Source: a virus
Taxonomy: Duplodnaviria; Heunggongvirae; Uroviricota; Caudoviricetes
Virus record (IMG/VR): IMGVR_UViG_2531839668_000009
Length of the DNA: 21,334 bases
Direction: 5' to 3' (one strand)
A program made the translations under genes and the position numbers. The notes beneath the pieces are model-generated. The model was not told where the DNA came from, searched no databases, and saw only the letters and a program-made list of their open reading frames with translations. Below are positions 8,562-16,951 of this stretch, piece by piece. Each line of letters begins with the position of its first letter. Position 1 is the first letter of the stretch.

Positions 8562-9039
8562 CGAATTTCTCCCGTGTAGAGGAACAGAGTTAAAAAGCCG
8601 GAAGCGGAATCAAATCACAGGATGACCATCTGCCAGTGGCTGGTCGTAAAAAAAAGGCCGCGCCATGCGCAGCCGAAAATAAAGGGATAACGATGATAGT
8701 TTGAGAAAAACAGAAATAACACTTTTGTGGCAAAGCATGGTGCCGGGTGCCTCCCGGTGAATTCAGTATCAGCACCTGAATCCGCGATTACCCCATATTC
8801 CTTCTTGCTGATTGCCCCACCGCACAGGGGGATTCACCATGCAGAAGTGTTTTTAATAAACAGCAAACAAAAAAATCAAGCATTATGCAGGCTGTTTCTT
8901 TTTATCACCGGCCACAGCAATACCATAATGCCGCAGACCAGCACCCCATCCGCCAGCACCGACATGATTCTGCTGGTGAAATCCACCATCACCACCAGAA
9001 ACAGCAGGAGTGCAGCCACAGTCAGGCGCAGTTTTACCG

Positions 9040-9472
9040 TCACAGGTAATTCTCCAGACGAAGACCCAGAACACCGGCAATCTCTTCCAGCACCTTGCGC
9101 TCTTCCGGCTCAATTTCGCCGTCTGCCTCCGCAATGGCCACCGCCACATCCAGCACATCTTCCGCTTCACGCGTATCGTGTTTCACATCCTCGATCTCAC
9201 GTAACGCCGCACGACGACCAGTTTTAAAGTTCGTATCCAGCTGACCGATAATGGTTGCGCTAATCGCATTAATTTCTGACGTAAACGCGTACAGCGCAGG
9301 CTGATTACGCAGTACCTGTTCGATCTTCGCTTTCTAGGAAGCCTCACATTCACCATCTGCACAGGCCACCAGGTATGCGGCGTTAATCACCACCTGTGCC
9401 AGATCGCGTTTTTCAAACTTTTTAATTTCCGTTGCCGCTCTGCGGGCTTTTTTTACCAAAAATACCAAACAT
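9040..9472 (-). pseudogene. TerB-domain-like protein gene disrupted by a frameshift in an A7 tract and an in-frame TAG
   Basis: ATG at 9472 with AAGGA RBS gives MFGIFGKK then shifts frame at the A7 run (9448-9454). The body frame contains two acidic DG-x-E motifs (ADGECEAS, ADGEIEPEERKVLEEIAG), has an amber codon at 9334-9336, and ends ...GLRLENYL. Confidence 0.5.
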
Positions 9473-9641
9473 CGTGACGTTCCTTTGGGTGGGTGAGCCA
9501 ACGCCCGGGAGCGATCTGCCCACAGAGAAAGTCACACTGACCACTCCATAAGCTCCCCCCGAAAGGCTCTGTGGTTGGTATGCGCCGGGCGTGGTGCGGA
9601 TACAAAAAAGGTCCGCAAAAGCGAGCGAGGGAAAATAAGTG

Positions 9642-9718
9642 TGGTGCGTTGTACTGGGTTCGAACCAGTGACCGATTGCTTAGAAGGCAATTGCTCTGTC
9701 CGGCTGAGCTAAAAACGC
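9642..9718 (-). tRNA. argO: tRNA-Arg (anticodon UCU)
   Basis: Hand-folded cloverleaf on the - strand: acceptor stem with one mismatch, GGTTCGAACC T-arm, anticodon loop CTTCTAA, CCA end encoded. Symbol is by analogy with the Stx-phage ileZ-argN-argO cluster. Confidence 0.75.
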
Positions 9719-9731
9719 AGAATACCGATAA

Positions 9732-9808
9732 TGGACCGCCATCGGAGACTCGAACCCCGCGAAACCAGCTTCGAAGGCTGGCGTTCTATCCCGATGAGCT
9801 AATGGCGG
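9732..9808 (-). tRNA. argN: tRNA-Arg (anticodon UCG)
   Basis: Hand-folded: perfect 7-bp acceptor stem, T-arm CGGGG/TTCGAGT/CTCCG, anticodon loop CTTCGAA, CCA encoded; one mismatch in the D-stem. Confidence 0.7.
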
Positions 9809-9815
9809 TATGTGA

Positions 9816-9891
9816 TGGTGGCCCTTGCTGGATTTGAACCAGCGGCCTGGCGATTATGAGTCGCTCGCTCTCACCACTGAGCTAAAGGGCC
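9816..9891 (-). tRNA. ileZ: tRNA with CAU anticodon (Ile2-lysidine type or Met)
   Basis: Hand-folded: GGCCCTT acceptor, D-arm GCTC/GAGC, anticodon loop CTCATAA, T-arm GGTTCAAATCC, CCA encoded. Ile2 assignment is by analogy with ileZ of Stx-type phages. Confidence 0.7.
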
Positions 9892-10003
9892 GGGCGCAGG
9901 ATAATAACGTTACGAAATCAATGTTGCAAGCATTCAAGAATCACCTGGTTAAAAATTACCCTTGCTTCCTCCACCAGCGCATTCACCATGTCTATCCGAG
10001 ATA

Positions 10004-10030
10004 AGTGGCACAAAAAAACCCGCTTGTGGG
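10004..10030 (-). terminator. tR'-like intrinsic terminator downstream of the late promoter
   Basis: On the - strand: CCCGC-loop-GCGGG followed by a 7-U tract, located between the candidate late regulator gene and the tRNA cluster. Confidence 0.6.
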
Positions 10031-10084
10031 CGGGTTTTGTTTGCTTTTGCCATCACGTACAAAATCGGCAAAATATCAGATTTG

Positions 10085-10120
10085 CATGAAATATATGCCT
10101 TTCAATCTACTTTTGCAACA
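10085..10120 (-). promoter_or_regulatory. Candidate late promoter (pR'-like): -35 TTGCAA, 17-bp spacer, -10 TATATT
   Basis: Sigma-70-like hexamers read on the - strand about 60-70 nt upstream of the tR'-like terminator; any Q-utilisation site would lie here. Confidence 0.4.
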
Positions 10121-10163
10121 CTTTGCTTTGAAAATGCCGCCTTTTGTTTTGAACGCGTTCTCA

Positions 10164-10702
10164 TTACAAACAATAAAGCCTCACTAGCGCAATATTTTTT
10201 GTGCGCTGCTTCAGTATGCTGGTGGCGGTCTGTTCTCCCGGTATGATGTCGCTTTCACGGTATACGGAGCGGATTTTTTCCGCACGCAACCCCAGCGAAC
10301 GACGTAATACCGCTTCCGGTAGCGCGTCCGCCACCTGATTGCGGACCGCCCACCAGGATAATTCAGCCAGAGATAATTCACGCTCCTGCGTACCGCTTAT
10401 TGCGTGACGGATGATGTCAATCATCCAGGCGGCCAGATTCTGTTGAGCAAGTTGATCCAGTGAATCAGATGTCTGCTCCCGCAGCTGGTTGTCGCAGTGC
10501 CAGCACAACACCATCGCGCCGGTACCCGGGATTCACCTTCGCCAGCCAGAAACCAGGTGTGACCAGTTTTATCAACGACGCCATTTCTTTTGAGTTCCCA
10601 CAGCTCGTTGACAGCCTCTTCACGACTGATTCCAAGGCGAGCTGCCACCACATGTGAAGAGGCTTTTTTCAGTGCTTTCAGTGCGTCAGATACGGTTTCC
10701 AT
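10164..10702 (-). pseudogene. Candidate late-gene regulator at the Q antiterminator position, split by a frameshift
   Basis: Two overlapping - strand ORFs (10421..10702, 93 aa; 10164..10514, 116 aa) in different frames. The second frame opens at 10532, so the shift lies in about 10512-10535, around GGTACCCGGG. Q identity is positional only; no Q zinc-finger motif recognised. Confidence 0.4.
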
Positions 10703-10723
10703 TAAAATTTCCTCCGGACAAAA

Positions 10724-11470
10724 TTACTTCACAACCCTCATATTGCTGACATTTGGACGCCAGCTATCCCAGTTAAACGTCACCCATCGACCACCGTTCA
10801 TGGTCATGCGGTCCATAATCCTCTCACCAAGAAGCGTACTCATTGCGGCATGATTCAGGTTTGTTAACATCCCGACACTGCACAGTGATGCTGTCCGGCG
10901 ATCAATTATCTGGTGTAATACCACCTGCTCGTTTTTCGTCTCCCGCTGAACGCCTATTTCATCCAGGACCAGCAAATCAACACTGCAAAGCTCCTGTAAA
11001 AATTTTTCCCCGGATTTGCCGTTGTCGTAGCTGTCATGCAACACGCTCATGACATCAGACACGGTGACGATAATCACGCTGCGCCCCTTCGCCATCAGCC
11101 GGTTACCCATCGCCGCTGCAAGGTGATTTTTCCCGGTGCTGGTTTTACCGCTGAACACAAAATTCGTGCACCCGGTCATCAGTTCGTCAGCTATGGATTT
11201 GGCCTGGCTCAGCGCGTATTTTTGCCCGTCGTTCTGCACCTGATAATTCGCAAACGAGCATTTGCTGTGCAGAGGCTGGATGCCCGAACGATTCAGGATT
11301 TTTTCCACCCGCAACTGGTGATTCTGGCGGTTAATCTCCTCGCTGCGTTTTCGTCCTTCAGCAAGTTGCCATTCCCGCCACTCCTCCACCGTCCGGTACG
11401 GTGGAACCGACGCCTGTGGTGCAAGTCTGCGAATACGTTCAAGAACCCCGGCTGCCGCAATGTTTTTCAT
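10724..11470 (-). CDS. DnaC-like replicative helicase loader (IstB-type AAA+ ATPase, YdaV-like)
   Basis: 248 aa; Walker A-like FSGKTSTGKNHLAAA and Walker B-like LLVLDEIG; immediately downstream of the O-like initiator. Confidence 0.8.
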   Translation of the reverse strand: MKNIAAAGVLERIRRLAPQASVPPYRTVEEWREWQLAEGRKRSEEINRQNHQLRVEKILNRSGIQPLHSKCSFANYQVQNDGQKYALSQAKSIADELMTGCTNFVFSGKTSTGKNHLAAAMGNRLMAKGRSVIIVTVSDVMSVLHDSYDNGKSGEKFLQELCSVDLLVLDEIGVQRETKNEQVVLHQIIDRRTASLCSVGMLTNLNHAAMSTLLGERIMDRMTMNGGRWVTFNWDSWRPNVSNMRVVK

Positions 11471-11476
11471 GCCACA

Positions 11477-12703
11477 TCACCCCCTGAATCCCGGCGGAAT
11501 TTCGGTATCCGGTTCAGAAATATGATTCACACAACGCTGGTTGTTCGTGCCGCTTACCGGGAGCAACCAGGGGTTTTCAAAATTCCGGTCCGGCCCAAAA
11601 AACGTCGTCGCTCGCTGAACAAATTCCGTTCCCGCTTTCCCGGTCGCCGCCAGGTATCTCGCGTAACGCCTCACACCATCCAGCATGGTCTCTGGTGGCA
11701 CCCCCTCGCGCAATCTGGCCTTCCAGGCACTGAATGCGGATTTCTTCGGGTTTGCTCCGGCACGCAACGGGTACTCCCGCCAGACCTGTTCGAACACATC
11801 CGGATAATCCACTCGTCCCACAGACAGCCCGGTGTTTTCCGGGACTACCCGATCGGCTTCCCGCTGAATGGCGGAATCGGCTTCAGGCTGCTGCAGTTGG
11901 TGTGATTGCTTCGGCCTTGCGGTCATCACCTGCTGCACAGCGCCCGAATCGGCTTTCAGCGCATACGCTGAATCGGCTTCCGGTGTCGTGCCTGCTGGCT
12001 GACCAGGATTGACGGTCTGAACATCCCCTGCCTGGTTCGTGGTGTTTTTTTTGCCATGAACCATAGTGTTTTTGTCCTGTTCCTGTTCTTTCTCCTGCTC
12101 CTGTTCCTGTTCTTGGCTTCGAAGCCCCTTAAAAGCCCCTTCGAAGCCCCTTACCGAATTTCGGCTATTATTCCGCCTCACATCCAGATGGAAATCCGTT
12201 TTATATCTGTCGTAAAACACTGACAGAAAAGCGTTTTCAGGTAATGATGCATACTCATTCCTGACACCTGCACAACGGTTATCGCCAGGCTTCAACGTTT
12301 CCCCAACCTGCCAGGCTGCCATTTCATGGACCCAGACCATCTCTGCATCATGGTCATAGCTACAAAAACCAGCTTCAACAGCCCTTTTAAGCCCCTTTGA
12401 AGCCCCTTCCAGACCAAGCCCGGTTTCATGAGCAAGGTATAAAACTGGCAGGTAATACAAACCCAGCATATTTGCGTGAGGGGATGTCATCAGGTAAAAA
12501 GCAACAACTTGCGCTTCTGCACCCGCCTTTCTAAGTTCTCTCCCCGTTTCTCCCAGCCAGAATCGCGGAGAAACTTTTGCGTAATCACGCATGGCTACCT
12601 CATCTGGTGCCGAACCTTCCTCCGGATATAATCTGTGGTTCCCAATCGACAGAACCAGAGGAGGTTCGACATGTATTTTTTGAAAAGCCTTTATCAGGCT
12701 CAT
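11477..12703 (-). CDS. Replication initiation protein, lambda O functional analogue (YdaU/DUF1376-like)
   Basis: 408 aa with internal low-complexity SQEQEQEQEKEQEQ linker and iteron-like DNA repeats inside the gene. An alternative start at 12592 (MRDYAKV) has a better RBS. Confidence 0.7.
   Translation of the reverse strand: MSLIKAFQKIHVEPPLVLSIGNHRLYPEEGSAPDEVAMRDYAKVSPRFWLGETGRELRKAGAEAQVVAFYLMTSPHANMLGLYYLPVLYLAHETGLGLEGASKGLKRAVEAGFCSYDHDAEMVWVHEMAAWQVGETLKPGDNRCAGVRNEYASLPENAFLSVFYDRYKTDFHLDVRRNNSRNSVRGFEGAFKGLRSQEQEQEQEKEQEQDKNTMVHGKKNTTNQAGDVQTVNPGQPAGTTPEADSAYALKADSGAVQQVMTARPKQSHQLQQPEADSAIQREADRVVPENTGLSVGRVDYPDVFEQVWREYPLRAGANPKKSAFSAWKARLREGVPPETMLDGVRRYARYLAATGKAGTEFVQRATTFFGPDRNFENPWLLPVSGTNNQRCVNHISEPDTEIPPGFRG
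12117..12410. repeat. Two clusters of three AAGCCCCTT-type direct repeats flanking an AT-richer segment (candidate ori iterons)
   Basis: Cluster 1 at about 12117-12152 and cluster 2 at about 12378-12410, with a simple CCTGTT repeat run and an AT-rich stretch between; all inside the O-like coding sequence. Confidence 0.45.
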
Positions 12704-12809
12704 GTATTAAATGTTGCAGCAACAAACCGCTGGTGTAACAGCCCCGAAATGCTCCCGGATTACAGAGCCTGGCTGCGCGCCGAAACATACCTTCGTCTCG
12801 ACATATTGA

Positions 12810-13319
12810 TTAGCAGACTTCAAAAAGAGACTGCATCCATTCATAACCTTCAGGGTATCGACGCTGTTCGCATTCTGGTATCGCGCCATAGTGCTCTCTC
12901 AATAATTGAAGTGCGTCATCTCTCTTTTTCTGAACTGATTTTCTTGCTTCAACCAGCTCTGGAATCAGCGAATATCCCACCGGAAGTGATCCAATACCCA
13001 CCTCATGTTGACGAGCAGTTACAAGATGTGCCATACAACCAGCGTGCTGGATTGACTCCCTGCTCAGAGGCTGAATGGGATCACTCTCTGCTGAAGAAAT
13101 ACCAAGATTTGTATAATCCTCAATAAGCCCGGCACACGCTTCTGCATCAGCCAGCTTTATTCTGGTTTCCTTGCGCTGTTCTCTGGCTGACAAACGCCAG
13201 AGCAGCGCATTAGCTTTATGTATCAACCACTCTGCCAGCTCCACATCAGATAAACCGCCACGCCAGATGTGCGGACTGTTTTCGTAAACGCTCAGTGTCA
13301 ATTTTTTGTCATTACTCAT
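12810..13319 (-). CDS. Hypothetical protein between the YdaT-like and O-like genes
   Basis: Track ORF 12810..13370 begins at a GTG overlapping the YdaT-like gene; the first ATG (13319, MSNDKK) starts 14 nt after the YdaT-like stop. A + strand ORF (12635..13126) overlaps, and the - strand is preferred by operon context only. Confidence 0.4.
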   Translation of the reverse strand: MSNDKKLTLSVYENSPHIWRGGLSDVELAEWLIHKANALLWRLSAREQRKETRIKLADAEACAGLIEDYTNLGISSAESDPIQPLSRESIQHAGCMAHLVTARQHEVGIGSLPVGYSLIPELVEARKSVQKKRDDALQLLREHYGAIPECEQRRYPEGYEWMQSLFEVC

Positions 13320-13332
13320 ATTTATTACCCAA

Positions 13333-13758
13333 TTAATGCACAGCCAGAGTGTTTCCTGCCGGGCCACCACGATTCATCTGATCGAACAGAACGATCGCTG
13401 ATGCAACGAAATCATCAATATCTTTCACCAGCCGTTCCTTCGTCTCTACCAACTCCCGAAAATAAGCGGAACTGTGGCTGCGCATTCGGGCCACCAGCGG
13501 AGGCGGCATCGCTTTTTCGATCGCTGGTAACAACGCCTGAATTTTTTTAACCGCATCAGGAGTGTCTTTCTCCACCCAGCGGAAAATTTTCTGAGTATTG
13601 CGAGCCATGGCTTCCGGATGGCTGTCGTCATACAGTTCCGGGAACGTCATTCCCAGCTCGAAATACGCTTTGGTAATTTTCGCAGCCGGTACTTTTTCGC
13701 CGTCCGGATGCGCCCAGGCATTCATCGCCATGCGGATGTGTTCATGCTTGATTTTCAT
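13333..13758 (-). CDS. YdaT-like protein (Rac-prophage YdaT family, proposed CII-like regulator)
   Basis: 141 aa, ATG with GGAGG RBS, directly downstream of the Cro-like gene as in Rac ydaS-ydaT. Confidence 0.6.
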   Translation of the reverse strand: MKIKHEHIRMAMNAWAHPDGEKVPAAKITKAYFELGMTFPELYDDSHPEAMARNTQKIFRWVEKDTPDAVKKIQALLPAIEKAMPPPLVARMRSHSSAYFRELVETKERLVKDIDDFVASAIVLFDQMNRGGPAGNTLAVH

Positions 13759-13761
13759 GAA

Positions 13762-14043
13762 TCAACCTCCATCAGCCTTTTTGGTGTTAAGTTCATATTT
13801 GTGACGTGAAGGGGACGTGATTCCCGTGTATTCGGGCCATATAAGCTCCCAGTCATTAGGTCTCAATTCTCGTCTTGTAACATGTCCCCCAGTTTCTGCT
13901 TCTATCATCAACGCACGAACAGGAGACACAGGTGAAGTTCCAGATGCCATTTGGGACAAGAAAGACGGAGACACACCAAGATTGGTCGCAAATTTTTTTG
14001 CTTCTCCAGTTTTTAATGATTTGATGAATTCCTTTAGCGTCAT
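13762..14043 (-). CDS. Cro-like HTH regulator (YdaS/DicC type)
   Basis: 93 aa, divergent from the repressor gene, first gene of the rightward operon. Confidence 0.65.
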   Translation of the reverse strand: MTLKEFIKSLKTGEAKKFATNLGVSPSFLSQMASGTSPVSPVRALMIEAETGGHVTRRELRPNDWELIWPEYTGITSPSRHKYELNTKKADGG

Positions 14044-14145
14044 AATTTTTATCTCAGCACATTTAGAACAAGCAAAAGTTTATTTGCAACTAAATAAACT
14101 AGTCAAGTATTTGCTTGTTTTGCGATTACTAAAGATAATGCATGT
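14044..14145. promoter_or_regulatory. Divergent immunity promoter/operator region
   Basis: About 100-bp AT-rich intergenic region between the divergent Cro-like and repressor genes, with an inverted repeat ACAAGCAAA ... TTTGCTTGT. Confidence 0.5.
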
Positions 14146-14517
14146 ATGGAAACAAAAGAGATTCGGCGTTTACGCCTCAAAGAGTGGTTCAAAGACAGGA
14201 CTTTGCCGCCTAAAGAGAAAAGTTACTTATCTCAGTTAATGAGCGGTAAAGCTACGTTTGGCGAAAAGGCAGCTAGACGTATTGAGCAAACATATGGGAT
14301 GCCTGGGGGGTATCTTGATATGGAACCTGAAGATACAACAGAATCTCCGTCATCAAGAACTATGGCATTAACGCCTAACCAATTGGAATTGTTGCAAATA
14401 TTTAGTGCTTTTCCTGACGCTGAGCAGCAGGAAATCATAAAAGAGCTAAGAAACAAAAAAGAGGCAATGGAAGATCTTGTTGCACGTTGGTTGGCGCGGC
14501 AGGGTCGCCGAGCCTGA
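14146..14517 (+). CDS. Prophage repressor, DicA/RacR type
   Basis: 123 aa; N-terminal HTH and a C-terminal block (LTPNQLELLQIFSAFPDAEQQEIIKELRNKKEAMEDLVARWLA) resembling the DicA C-terminus. Confidence 0.7.
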   Translation: METKEIRRLRLKEWFKDRTLPPKEKSYLSQLMSGKATFGEKAARRIEQTYGMPGGYLDMEPEDTTESPSSRTMALTPNQLELLQIFSAFPDAEQQEIIKELRNKKEAMEDLVARWLARQGRRA

Positions 14518-14547
14518 CGGGATACTTACTAAAACAAGAGATATCAG

Positions 14548-15009
14548 ATGGGCGTACTCGAAATTAGTGCTCTTAGAATTAAGATGCTTCTATTGGCAAA
14601 AGGCTGGAGCCAAGCAGAACTTGCGCGCAGAATTGGTATTGCTCAACAATCCGTCCAAAGGTGGGCTTGTGGCATCTCAAGCCCTACAGCAGCCAACCTA
14701 GATAAACTATCTGATGTGACTGGATTTCCTCAGTATTGGTTTTTCTTACCATTAAATGAAGAAAATAAGGACAGGGCACAGGATATATTAAAAATAACCC
14801 CTACGCAAAAGGAACTACTTCAAACATTTGAGGCATTTCCAGAGGAAGAGCAACAGCAAATGCTTAAAGATATGAAAGAGAAAAAAGAGACAATGGATCG
14901 TATAGTTGCAAAGTGGCTAGCAGCACAACAAAAAGTTCCTAGGCAGGATTACCAGCACTTACAAGACGAGGTTCACCATGAACACGGCCCTTTCACCAAT
15001 GGTTTCTGA
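14548..15009 (+). CDS. Second XRE-family HTH regulator, PaaR2-like, paralogous to the upstream repressor in its C-terminal domain
   Basis: 153 aa; classic XRE HTH (LAKGWSQAELARRIGIAQQSVQRW) and a C-terminal block ITPTQKELLQTFEAFPEEEQQQMLKDMKEKKETMDRIVAKWLA homologous to the upstream gene; 3' end overlaps the antitoxin start. Confidence 0.65.
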   Translation: MGVLEISALRIKMLLLAKGWSQAELARRIGIAQQSVQRWACGISSPTAANLDKLSDVTGFPQYWFFLPLNEENKDRAQDILKITPTQKELLQTFEAFPEEEQQQMLKDMKEKKETMDRIVAKWLAAQQKVPRQDYQHLQDEVHHEHGPFTNGF

Positions 15010-15169
15010 ATTTGAAACCGTCGAGCAAGAAAATAGTTATAACGAATGGCTGCGTGCAAAAGTGGCCGCAAGCCTTGCTGATCCACGTCCAGCCATTCCC
15101 CATGACGAAGTTGAACGCAGAATGGCTGAACGCTTTGCTAACATGCGCAAGGAACGGAGCAAACAGTAA
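14978..15169 (+). CDS. paaA: Antitoxin of the ParE-family toxin, PaaA2-like
   Basis: 63 aa; immediately precedes the toxin with TAA-ATG juxtaposition. Size and sequence agree with my recollection of PaaA2 from the paaR2-paaA2-parE2 modules of O157 prophages. Confidence 0.65.
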   Translation: MNTALSPMVSEFETVEQENSYNEWLRAKVAASLADPRPAIPHDEVERRMAERFANMRKERSKQ

Positions 15170-15457
15170 ATGTTACCGGTTTTATGGCTCGAAAGCGCAG
15201 ATGCCGACCTAGATAATATAACCAGCTATATTGCACGTTTTGACATAGATGCGGCAGAACGTTTGTGGAAACGCTTAAGGACTTGCGTCCTGCCATTATC
15301 TGAACATCCGTATTTATACCCGCCAAGCGACAGAGTGCCTGGTTTGCGTGAAACTGTAGCTCACCCCAATTACATCATTCTGTACCGCGTGACAATTTCA
15401 GGCATTGAAATTGTTAACGTAGTTCACGCCCGCCGACAGTTCCCTGTAACACCTTAA
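15170..15457 (+). CDS. parE: ParE/RelE-superfamily toxin
   Basis: 95 aa; typical RelE/ParE-fold pattern (…YRVTISGIEIVNVVHARRQFP). Confidence 0.75.
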   Translation: MLPVLWLESADADLDNITSYIARFDIDAAERLWKRLRTCVLPLSEHPYLYPPSDRVPGLRETVAHPNYIILYRVTISGIEIVNVVHARRQFPVTP

Positions 15458-15467
15458 TCCCCCTAAG

Positions 15468-15490
15468 CCCCTCTCAAGAGGGGTTATTCT
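15468..15490 (+). terminator. Intrinsic terminator after the toxin gene (CCCCTC-TCAA-GAGGGG then TTATTCTT)
   Basis: GC-rich 6-bp stem with a tetraloop and a T-rich tail, 10 nt after the parE stop. Confidence 0.6.
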
Positions 15491-15512
15491 TGCCAAAGAG
15501 TTAAGTTAAATA

Positions 15513-15540
15513 TTGACTGTTTAGTTTATTTTTGTATAAA
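15513..15540 (+). promoter_or_regulatory. Candidate sigma-70 promoter of the dicB-type operon (TTGACT, 16 bp, TATAAA)
   Basis: Near-consensus hexamers just after the TA terminator, followed by an untranslated leader of about 170 nt before the YdfA-like ORF. Confidence 0.4.
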
Positions 15541-15720
15541 CTGATTTTACCAACCCACTCCGCCCCACAGAACGCAGGGCAATACCTAGAGTTACCAGGC
15601 AGTGGTCAGGGGTTAAGTAGCCAGCCCGAGGCGTAAGAACATGACGGCGGGAACACTTTGTATAACAGCGCAGCAGGTTTTTAGTTCCGCGACCCGGCGT
15701 TAAGGGTAAATGAGGTCAAC

Positions 15721-15873
15721 ATGGATATGCTCAATCTTGGCAACAACGAATCTCTGGTATGCGGAGTATTCCCCAACCTGGACGGCACGTTCACCGCGAT
15801 GACGTATACCAGAAGCAAAACGTTTAAAACGGAAGCTGGCGCGCGTCGCTGGTTAGCAAGAAACTCTGACTGA
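15721..15873 (+). CDS. YdfA/YdaF-family small protein
   Basis: 50-aa ORF found by hand (below track cutoff): MDMLNLGNNESLVCGVFPNLDGTFTAMTYTRSKTFKTEAGARRWLARNSD; position matches ydfA downstream of dicA in Qin. Confidence 0.55.
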   Translation: MDMLNLGNNESLVCGVFPNLDGTFTAMTYTRSKTFKTEAGARRWLARNSD

Positions 15874-15971
15874 TGAAGGTTAGTAATTAAAGAGTTCTCC
15901 ACAGGCGAAGTGGAATACGTTCGCCGGACACGGGTAAGCATCCGGCATGCTCTTTAACAATCTGGGTATTC

Positions 15972-16418
15972 CTAACCACAAAGGAATCGCATCAATTTGG
16001 ATTTTGCAGACAGTTTCTCTTGTTGTTCTACGGAGATTCCTATTTTGATCTGGGTTTTTAAGATTGCGATATCTTTAAGCGACGACCAAATATTATCATC
16101 TGTTTTTTCCAGGAGCTTTAACTGCATTTTCAATTCCGAATCGGAATATTTTTCTGCATCATCATAAAGCTGCAGATATTCTGCGGATTTTCTCATTGCG
16201 TTACCTGACTTTTGTCCGAATCCGTAAATCGTTTGAACGGTTGCTATCACAACAATGAGAACTCCAGAAACTTCAGGAATAAATCCACCAATGACAGATG
16301 AACCGAGGATAATACTCACCACTGAGAGAAGTTTATCGAGACGACCAGTCGCTACAGAGAATAGTTGTTCAAGAAAATAACCATATAAAACCCTGTCAAG
16401 AATATCATCCCGGTCCAT
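15972..16418 (-). CDS. Hypothetical membrane protein encoded antisense within the early-left operon (SieB position)
   Basis: 148 aa, ATG with AGGTGA RBS; two hydrophobic helices (LLSVVSIILGSSVIGGFIPEVSGVLIVVIATVQTIYGF) then a charged helical C-terminal region; AT-rich relative to neighbours. Confidence 0.55.
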   Translation of the reverse strand: MDRDDILDRVLYGYFLEQLFSVATGRLDKLLSVVSIILGSSVIGGFIPEVSGVLIVVIATVQTIYGFGQKSGNAMRKSAEYLQLYDDAEKYSDSELKMQLKLLEKTDDNIWSSLKDIAILKTQIKIGISVEQQEKLSAKSKLMRFLCG

Positions 16419-16477
16419 ATATCATCACCTGCTTGTTTGATTGTTGCTGTTCCCCCTCTCCTCTGAAGGAGCTGGAG

Positions 16478-16666
16478 ATGGTTTTGGTCGAATGTTTTTC
16501 TCAGGTATATGTTTCCTGGTATTCGGAATGTCCGACCTGTCCGCAGGCTTACCAGTACCTGAACAATTCTTTTGAACCACCATATAAAACACCTTCCTGT
16601 TGTTGGGGATATCCAGATTATACAGATTTCCTGTCGTTGGGGAACGACGGAAACCACCTCGCCTGA
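16478..16666 (+). CDS. Hypothetical Cys-rich small protein (62 aa)
   Basis: Internal ATG of track ORF 16433..16666 with a GAAGGAG RBS about 8 nt upstream; contains CPTC and SCC motifs; the 3' part overlaps a 16-bp direct repeat. Confidence 0.35.
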   Translation: MVLVECFSQVYVSWYSECPTCPQAYQYLNNSFEPPYKTPSCCWGYPDYTDFLSLGNDGNHLA

Positions 16667-16893: not shown

Positions 16894-16951
16894 TTCTGGT
16901 GACATTTGGCGGTATCAGTTTTACTCCGTGACTGCTCTGCCGCCCTTTTTT
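16894..16951 (+). ncRNA. dicF: DicF small regulatory RNA
   Basis: TTCTGGTGACATTTGGCGGTATCAGTTTTACTCCGTGACTGCTCTGCCGCCC followed by a T-run matches the DicF sequence as I recall it, with a terminator hairpin at its 3' end; sits upstream of dicB as in Qin. Confidence 0.8.

Follow-up and report, generated by a model that had tools for sequence, protein, structure and literature searches.

The 21,334-nucleotide stretch of DNA analysed here, IMG/VR virus record IMGVR_UViG_2531839668_000009 (the whole of it is called the window below), carries a prophage with a lambdoid early-right operon. In this operon a replication initiator gene lies downstream of Cro/YdaS-like and CII/YdaT-like genes and is followed immediately by a gene for a DnaC/IstB-like AAA+ helicase loader (Table 1). 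The initiator matched the PHROG replication-initiation families phrog_1701 (E = 5e-148) and phrog_3729, and the loader gene matched Pfam IstB_IS21 (E = 6.8e-18), Bac_DnaA, and PHROG 50, 'DnaC-like helicase loader' (E = 8e-82). A sequence-only reading of the window had pointed to iteron-like repeats inside this initiator gene, and these repeats are the subject of the present analysis. The mechanical open reading frame (ORF) of the initiator spans 11477-12703 on the minus strand. The start codon is most likely the ATG at 12592 and not at 12703, because the product annotated by PGAP (WP_001205821.1) has 371 amino acids and every homologue begins with MRDY. The 37 codons upstream of this conserved start (12593-12703) are missing from the homologue proteins and are probably an untranslated leader. 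E. coli E2865 and O157:H16 str. 98-3133 both have exactly the same product, annotated as a 'hypothetical protein', and the latter genome is 100% identical to positions 8500-16500 of the window.

The exact nonamer AAGCCCCTT occurs five times in the window, at 12122, 12133, 12144, 12389 and 12400, always on the plus strand and always inside the initiator gene. The mean expected from shuffled sequences was 0.12, and none of 100 shuffles reached five copies, confirming the earlier claim of direct repeats in two clusters within the gene. Tandem Repeats Finder gave a period of 11 in both clusters, and a repeat alignment joined them into one family. When one mismatch was allowed, the motif was not enriched over the window (8 copies vs 5.2 expected); the informative copies are the exact, phased ones. 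The clusters had been described as having three repeats each. This was correct for cluster B, whereas cluster A has only two exact units, the third one being degenerate and its matching codons 69-71 unconserved across the family. Cluster A codes for EGASKGL (codons 62-68; GAA-GGG-GCT-TCN-AAG-GGG-CTT) within a predicted third helix, and cluster B codes for RGF-EGAF-KGL in a segment, predicted to be disordered, past the N-terminal domain (N-domain). The 11-bp period is not a multiple of three, and therefore successive copies are read in different frames (V-RGF, EGAF and KGL in cluster B; EGAS and KGL in cluster A), so that the repeat exists at the level of DNA and not of codons. The KGL motif, which the repeats had been thought to encode, is thus specified by two of the five copies, the others giving EGA(S/F) and RGF.

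Homologues of the N-domain were many (53-80% identity). From these we took 80 genomic loci, of which most belong to Gamma- and Betaproteobacteria and a few to metagenome-assembled genomes binned to other phyla, and counted the coding-strand motif AAGGGGCTT, with at most one mismatch, over 77 of them. Of the 77 loci, 66 had it at gene nt 185 and 196, and 68 had two to three phased units again at about nt 429-487, so that the repeats proved not to be absent from homologues, the outcome that had been named as fatal to the idea. Motif density was 25.7 hits/kb in the two cluster regions and 0.19/kb over 386 kb of flanks, a 136-fold difference, and the units stayed unchanged although the GC content of the gene spans 39-67% across the loci. 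A unit can be written as 9+2, since the two nucleotides that separate neighbouring copies vary freely. The distance from cluster to cluster is about 250 bp and ranges among homologues from 244 to 302 bp, varying in whole codons, which rules out a strict helical register between clusters A and B.

We then compared codon use inside and outside the repeats in a codon alignment of the 69 sequences that were left after de-duplication at 85% nucleotide identity. The 15 codons of the repeats had a normalised codon entropy of 0.26, against 0.82 for 66 conserved codons elsewhere (Mann-Whitney p = 1.6e-8). Cluster A used GAA in 100%, GGG in 99%, AAG in 100%, GGG in 88% and CTT in 90% of sequences, and cluster B used GCC in 100%, CCT in 93%, AAG in 100%, CCC in 93%, CGA in 97% and AGC in 98%. 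Synonymous sites were also frozen in the junction CGAAGCCAAGA that follows cluster B (CGA 97%, AGC 98%, CAA 84%). The conserved residues Gly58, Gly75, Ala54 and Thr57, which lie outside the repeats, each use four codons, the commonest accounting for 35-37%, whereas Gly63, inside the repeats, is GGG in 99%.

The orientation of the units turned out to be free. Relative to cluster A, 50 of the 77 loci have cluster B inverted, 13 have units of both orientations in the array and 5 have it direct; the direct arrangement was seen in the window and in those five loci only (Raoultella, Citrobacter, Proteus and Rahnella). The peptide follows the DNA, reading (R/E)G(F/A)xKGL when cluster B is direct and EAPSKPL when it is inverted. 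A duplex motif that is kept while the peptide changes is expected of a double-stranded binding site, and not of a peptide or RNA element. Furthermore, units also occur in non-coding DNA. Acinetobacter prophages and phages and two other loci have one to three extra ones in tandem just upstream of the start codon (-45 to -10), where they overlap the ribosome-binding site and may point either way. Their placement suggests either autoregulation or a third origin array. The window and most members of the family have no upstream copies, and their units lie 185-470 nt into the coding sequence.

The motif also changes with the subfamily of the N-domain. A distant subfamily (31% identity), with Klebsiella phage ST13-OXA48phi12.4 and 80 relatives from IMG/VR as its representatives, carries the symmetric variant AAAGGGTTT (AAAGGGTTY units) at nt 176-194 and 408-426, the corresponding gene positions, with the 11-bp period and a (QE/QD)n linker after it. 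Its unit differs from AAGGGGCTT by two changes at dyad-symmetric positions (AAG...CTT to AAA...TTT), and the peptide becomes ERVSKGF. Paired changes at such positions fit recognition by a binder with two-fold symmetry. The initiator gene itself is mosaic. About 96% identity links its C-terminal half (11477-12072) to the 'replisome organiser' Rep genes of the type found in phage Tritos; this half is present in about 2400 E. coli genomes, whereas the N-terminal half with the repeats is present in about 470; the megablast boundary is at query position 596, that is, window position 12072. Among the homologues, the C-terminal regions beyond the linker are unrelated to each other. On the shared C-terminal module, Tritos Rep carries a different N-domain with arrays of its own, made of GTCACG (9 copies vs 1.8 expected). 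Eight of the nine copies fall in two intragenic arrays with 10-11 bp spacing, followed by a linker of acidic DKDT repeats (DKDTDKDT). Therefore, the repeats go with the N-domain rather than the C-terminal module, which is also how the iterons of lambdoid phages behave.

The stretch between the clusters that adjoins cluster B has a GC content of 33-40% in 60-nt windows, against 53% for the whole gene, which bears out the AT-richer region described there. A dip at gene nt 341-420, 6-8 points under the gene mean, was found in 85% of 65 homologues. The CCTGTT run had been placed between the clusters too, and in fact adjoins the outer (left) side of cluster B. It encodes a (QE)n linker that is kept as a peptide only: SQEQEQEQ... 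occurs in nearly all homologues, from 4 to more than 20 units long, with a CAR/GAR synonymous entropy of 0.89. The run coincides with the junction at which N- and C-terminal modules are exchanged, and is likely to be a flexible acidic linker and a recombination hotspot rather than a sequence-specific site.

The N-domain could be placed by fold rather than by family. The whole initiator protein had no Pfam-A hit at E<=0.01, the N-domain had none in Pfam or NCBIfam even at E<=10, and no model in these collections covered the N-terminal 160 residues. AlphaFold2, run on a 66-sequence alignment, gave a mean pLDDT of 84, with values above 90 for residues 4-142 and below 50 for residues 143-165. The model shows a winged helix (helices 25-36, 50-57 and 60-73; strands 45-47, 77-80 and 85-88) plus three further helices. 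Residues 143-165 are predicted to be disordered, and cluster B and the (QE)n run would thus code for a disordered linker. Foldseek against the PDB returned weak matches only (E>0.1) and no specific initiator relative, nearly all of the matches being winged-helix DNA-binding domains such as MarR, CAP, CzrA and the plasmid initiator 4pt7. Because helix 3 of the model comprises residues 60-73, cluster A would code for part of the canonical recognition helix. An N-terminal winged helix in the AlphaFold2 model, a variable C-terminal domain and a separate helicase loader together give the architecture of a replisome organiser.

Familiar names fit this protein less well. We found no homology to the N-terminal origin-binding domain of lambda O (Phage_rep_O; Pfam-A at E<=0.01, N-domain at E<=10), and the downstream gene is IstB/DnaC-like AAA+ and not a lambda P-type partner. 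Homology to Rac YdaU (DUF1376) was rejected: BLASTP against K-12 YdaU aligned only the last 19 residues, and there was no PF07120-type hit. The labels 'O-like' and 'ydaU-type' of the sequence-only reading hence describe the position of the gene and nothing more. PF09681 and TIGR01714 did not hit the initiator and hit Tritos Rep only weakly (E = 0.12 and 0.016). PHROG 1701 bears the label 'DnaD-like helicase loader'; Pfam DnaB_2 and DnaD gave no hit, and the PHROG name is a family label only. The replicon does belong to Eru4, since its first two replication genes are shared with Shigella phage 75/02 Stx.

These data show that the units are under strong selection at the level of DNA, independent of coding, and that they are family-specific, independent of orientation and changed together with the N-domain subfamily. 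We consider it likely that the AAGCCCCTT units are iterons and that, with the lower-GC stretch, they form a candidate phage replication origin embedded in the initiator gene. This interpretation rests on nonamers that are non-random, phased at 11 bp, read in three frames and conserved in the family under synonymous constraint. It rests also on their independence of orientation, the non-coding copies, the co-variation in the second subfamily and the arrays of Tritos, and, on the side of the protein, on the winged-helix fold, the PHROG initiator matches, the DnaC-like neighbour and the precedent of lambda. Iteron-type origins in general have three or more similar, helically phased repeats specific to the replicon, and the five exact units agree with this; selection on the DNA itself is seen in the constraint on synonymous sites, the flips in orientation and the non-coding copies. 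The iterons would be double-stranded sites, one per helical turn (11 bp), for the winged-helix N-domain of the initiator itself. Transcription from the early rightward promoter would yield the initiator, whose N-domains would fill both arrays, about 250 bp apart, and form an O-some-like complex; the AT-richer DNA by cluster B would then open, and the C-terminal module, with its DnaT-like tail, and the adjacent DnaC-like ATPase would load the host DnaB. Binding by this initiator, the site of melting, the activity of the origin and the loading of DnaB by the C-terminal module and the DnaC-like protein are the parts that we infer. The module had been suggested to be functional. The initiator and loader ORFs are indeed both intact, but the prophage around them is degraded, with remnants of Q and DUF968 genes, so that the word can refer to no more than the replication module, in the sense of intact ORFs.

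Several points weigh against this interpretation. The only classification that we found for this replicon, Eru4, calls the initiator a protein of 'unknown function' and describes no origin (PMC8951638). The GC dip across the family is modest, 6-8 points, and may partly come from an amino-acid composition rich in F, Y, D, K and N. The units are short, 9 bp against the 19-bp iterons of lambda, and the variable distance between A and B keeps no strict helical register. One nonamer is common to almost the whole subfamily, whereas lambdoid O proteins diversify in iteron specificity. The label 'recognition helix' for helix 3 comes from canonical winged-helix geometry and not from a model of a complex. 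Finally, the Acinetobacter copies that overlap the ribosome-binding site suit a role as operators at least equally well.

Iteron-binding plasmid Rep proteins commonly autoregulate through sites near the start of the gene. The units could be operators with which the initiator, or another phage regulator, tunes transcription or translation of the replication operon, initiation taking place elsewhere. The tandem units of Acinetobacter and the two other loci, which lie over the Shine-Dalgarno sequence at -45 to -10, are what such operators would look like, but the window and most of the family lack them and have their units far inside the coding sequence; moreover, two intragenic phased arrays, a lower-GC stretch and a loader gene make up the layout of the lambda origin (PMC7466680). 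We regard operators in place of an origin as unlikely, and the two roles are not mutually exclusive. The synonymous sites frozen in the CGA-AGC-CAA of the junction raise another idea, namely that cluster B, CGAAGCCAAGA and the GAACAG run, the conserved DNA where the N-domain ends, have been preserved as a homology patch through which C-terminal modules are swapped by recombination. The E. coli mosaic junction does lie at the distal end of the run, with its two halves differing in their spread over genomes (~2400 and ~470), and homologues are unrelated past the linker. Such a patch leaves unexplained cluster A within the folded domain, the 11-bp phasing, the orientation flips, the upstream non-coding copies and the second-subfamily variant at both positions, and the synonymous sites of the (QE)n run, where exchange takes place, vary freely. 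We therefore hold it to be very improbable as the reason for the repeats; at most it is a secondary consequence that explains the junction only.

Two further explanations concern RNA and protein. In the 50 loci where clusters A and B are reverse complements, the two could pair over about 20 nt as RNA or single-stranded DNA (ssDNA), giving a long-range stem that might, for example, regulate the mRNA or act as a hairpin origin. Yet the window and its enteric relatives have direct repeats and no stem, their 73% complementarity coming from palindromic flanks; 13 loci are mixed in orientation, the spacer dinucleotides show no compensation (14 observed vs 12.7 expected, p = 0.36), and no Rfam family was found in the gene. 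A stem of this kind has, in our view, hardly any chance of accounting for the clusters. Codon-level protein repeats (KGL/EGA motifs) with no role for the DNA, the other outcome named beforehand as fatal, have in their favour that EGASKGL is nearly invariant in the family alignment and that KGL occurs twice in the protein of the window. The period of 11 bp puts the copies in three frames, synonymous positions are frozen in the repeats only, in hosts of 39-67% GC, cluster B keeps its DNA motif in inverted form while the peptide becomes EAPSKPL, and copies occur in non-coding DNA. This is the least credible of the explanations that we weighed, and we give it next to no weight.

An origin within the initiator gene has known counterparts, the closest being that of lambda, in which iterons and an AT-rich tract occupy the middle part of gene O (PMC7466680). 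The likeness to ori-lambda drawn by the sequence-only reading holds as a matter of design, with iterons and a 33-40% GC stretch inside the initiator coding sequence and a helicase-loader gene next to it, and does not extend to homology with lambda O. As in lambda and Shiga toxin (Stx) phages, origin-type repeats lie in the initiator's own coding sequence beside an AT-richer tract, part of the array falls in a linker tolerant of sequence change, and a helicase-loading partner follows immediately in an early rightward operon after cro/cII-like genes. The differences from lambda O are that the protein of the window has no sequence homology to it (no Pfam hit), that its units are 9 bp with an 11-bp period instead of 19-bp iterons, and that there are two arrays about 250 bp apart instead of one, of which one codes for a helix of a folded DNA-binding domain. 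In addition, the partner is DnaC/IstB-like and not lambda P, and the iteron is almost invariant across the subfamily.

Gene 38 of phage SPP1 likewise contains an origin, oriL. The protein G38P binds this origin and acts alongside a helicase loader that is a separate protein (PMC5615212). Tritos Rep shares with the window the C-terminal half (96% nucleotide identity) and the arrangement of two intragenic arrays, spaced 10-11 bp, before an acidic linker. The N-domain of the window differs from Phage_rep_org_N in having no hit at E<=10 and in its repeats, AAGGGGCTT and not GTCACG, and kinship between the two N-domains is established no further than the winged-helix fold. The isolated phages of the family include the Stx1 phages POCJ13 and 75/02. 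In these Eru4 phages (75/02 Stx, POCJ13) the N-domain is 79.6% identical over 137 residues (tblastn, 75/02 Stx), the C-terminal module also aligns, and DnaC-like and DUF1627 genes come next. POCJ13 has the same nonamers at gene nt 185/196 and ~441/452, and differs in that its cluster B is inverted and has two units. Rac YdaU/YdaV occupy the same slot, after ydaS/ydaT-like genes and before a DnaC-like gene, and share the C-terminal tail ..PD..IPPGFRG. YdaU has five or six intragenic repeats of its own, AGATGTTCAA (E. coli K-12 locus L165, 3261-3563), which are candidate Rac iterons; it differs from the initiator in having no N-domain homology, and the window protein has no DUF1376 hit. Plasmid Reps of the RepA/pi type resemble the system in their winged helix, in short direct repeats phased with the helix and in possible autoregulation near the promoter; the Foldseek matches, all weak at E>0.1, include one plasmid initiator, 4pt7. 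Plasmid iterons are usually 17-22 bp long and lie outside the rep gene. Our literature search found nothing relevant that links the motif with iterons or replication, and a search on oriJ/ydaU gave no mapped origin sequence.

Table 1. Features of the initiator region in the window and of related arrays in homologous loci
Feature	Position	Strand	Remarks
Replication initiator gene	11477..12592	minus	371 amino acids; ORF and translation; PGAP and PHROG matches
Initiator protein layout			Predicted winged-helix N-domain, residues 1-142; predicted disordered linker with (QE)n; C-terminal module common to other Rep proteins
DnaC/IstB-like AAA+ helicase-loader gene	10724..11470	minus	Immediately downstream of the initiator gene
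Putative iteron cluster A	12389..12408	minus	Two exact 9-mers, at 12400-12408 (gene nt 185) and 12389-12397 (gene nt 196), reading AAGGGGCTT on the coding strand
Third, degenerate unit in cluster A	12378..12388	minus	ACAGCCCTTTT; 1 nt out of register
Lower-GC stretch	12160..12260		Between clusters, adjoining cluster B; candidate DNA-unwinding region
Putative iteron cluster B	12122..12152	minus	Three exact 9-mers, 11-bp period; gene nt 441, 452 and 463
Conserved junction CGAAGCCAAGA	12111..12121	minus	Half-unit GAAGCC; between cluster B and (QE)n run
CCTGTT/GAACAG simple repeat	12067..12112	minus	Encodes QEQEQEQEKEQEQ; found by Tandem Repeats Finder
Inverted repeat, hairpin with A/T-run loop	12033..12063		Just past (QE)n linker, start of shared C-terminal module
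Upstream units in homologous loci	L011 340-380; L018, L029, L031, L036, L041, L062 ~2955-2990; L073, L026	either	Non-coding DNA before the start codon
GTCACG arrays of phage Tritos Rep gene	L082 3135-3181 and 3405-3441		N-terminal half of Phage_rep_org_N-type Rep gene

The gene holds some further features. The inverted repeat just past the linker had an ssDNA folding z of -5.1 on the plus strand and was flagged by a terminator-like scan on the strand antisense to the gene; it is kept in phages Tritos and POCJ13 with other stem bases (TGGTTC/GAACCA vs GGTCC/GGACC), and might serve the origin as an accessory element or act as an antisense terminator. Apart from this hairpin, the scan for promoters and terminators stayed at chance level, and a search for DnaA boxes found none in or near the initiator gene. 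Within the linker of the shared C-terminal module, at 11852-11983, there are four copies of (G)AATCGGCTTC (coding strand GAAGCCGATTC, peptide EADS) whose starts are 24, 72 and 24 nt apart and hence in frame. The GAAGCCGATTC unit matches the iteron with its flanks, GAAGCCCCTTC, at 9 of 11 positions, and the copies may be either a peptide repeat or a degenerate binding site. The last ~24 residues of the protein (11477-11551; ..NHISEPDTEIPPGFRG) resemble the C-terminal end of the primosomal protein DnaT (NCBIfam E = 0.002). This DnaT-like tail (..PDTEIPPGFRG) is common to Rac YdaU, Tritos Rep and the Klebsiella subfamily, and may be a shared docking tail for the DnaC-like loader or for the host primosome.

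Around the operon, the region from the DnaC-like gene to the tRNA genes (10102-10702) retains only pieces of three genes, a hypothetical one and those for DUF968 and the Q antiterminator, as annotated by PGAP in the identical O157:H16 98-3133; the nin/Q region is lost, and therefore the prophage is defective in late gene expression. A gene for an 'ECs1072 family phage-associated protein' lies on the opposite strand between the CII/YdaT-like and initiator genes (12671-13126, plus). Because this gene is convergent, transcription into the initiator gene would need to read through it. A RelB antitoxin/RelE-ParE toxin pair (14978-15457; PGAP, identical sequence) lies beside the HTH repressor-like genes of the immunity region. 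Rfam models above the gathering score were DicF antisense RNA (16894-16945, plus), the sRNA STnc100 (8699-8871, minus) and three phage tRNA genes (9645-9891, minus), of which the annotation of the identical genome gives two as Arg and one as Ile.

An origin of this kind belongs to a well-known type of system, of which this is a new, uncharacterised family member, notable for its 9-bp units with an 11-bp period and for two arrays about 250 bp apart. Further notable features are an array over the codons of helix 3, units that flip freely, and a unit that is near-invariant across host classes. We tentatively raise one possibility, toward which we are somewhat more doubtful than inclined: that the binding site of the initiator is written in the codons of the very helix that may read it (cluster A/EGASKGL, helix 3 of the model). 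If helix 3 contacted the iteron, any shift in specificity would entail changing the protein and its site at once, in the same nucleotides. This would explain why one frozen nonamer is kept across Beta- and Gammaproteobacterial hosts at ~55% protein identity, and why AAAGGGTTT (ERVSKGF), the only variant seen, alters both dyad-symmetric flank bases jointly. On this view, quasi-palindrome template switching between the arrays would account for the free flipping of the cluster B units, in which GGG becomes CCC within an AAG...CTT frame.

The family is large. A profile search at E<=1e-30 gave 1755 clusters at 50% identity, which include the Eru4 replicon of Stx1-converting phages (75/02 Stx, POCJ13), prophages of Klebsiella, Acinetobacter and Burkholderiales, and Ralstonia phage NK-7, and PGAP names its members 'hypothetical protein' or 'DNA-binding protein'. 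The gene provides a natural example of overlapping coding for a protein and a DNA site, and the 20-nt signature AAGGGGCTTNNAAGGGGCTT could be used to annotate origins of this kind. Taken together, these results assign a likely origin, and a likely role in origin binding, to a large family that has no Pfam model.

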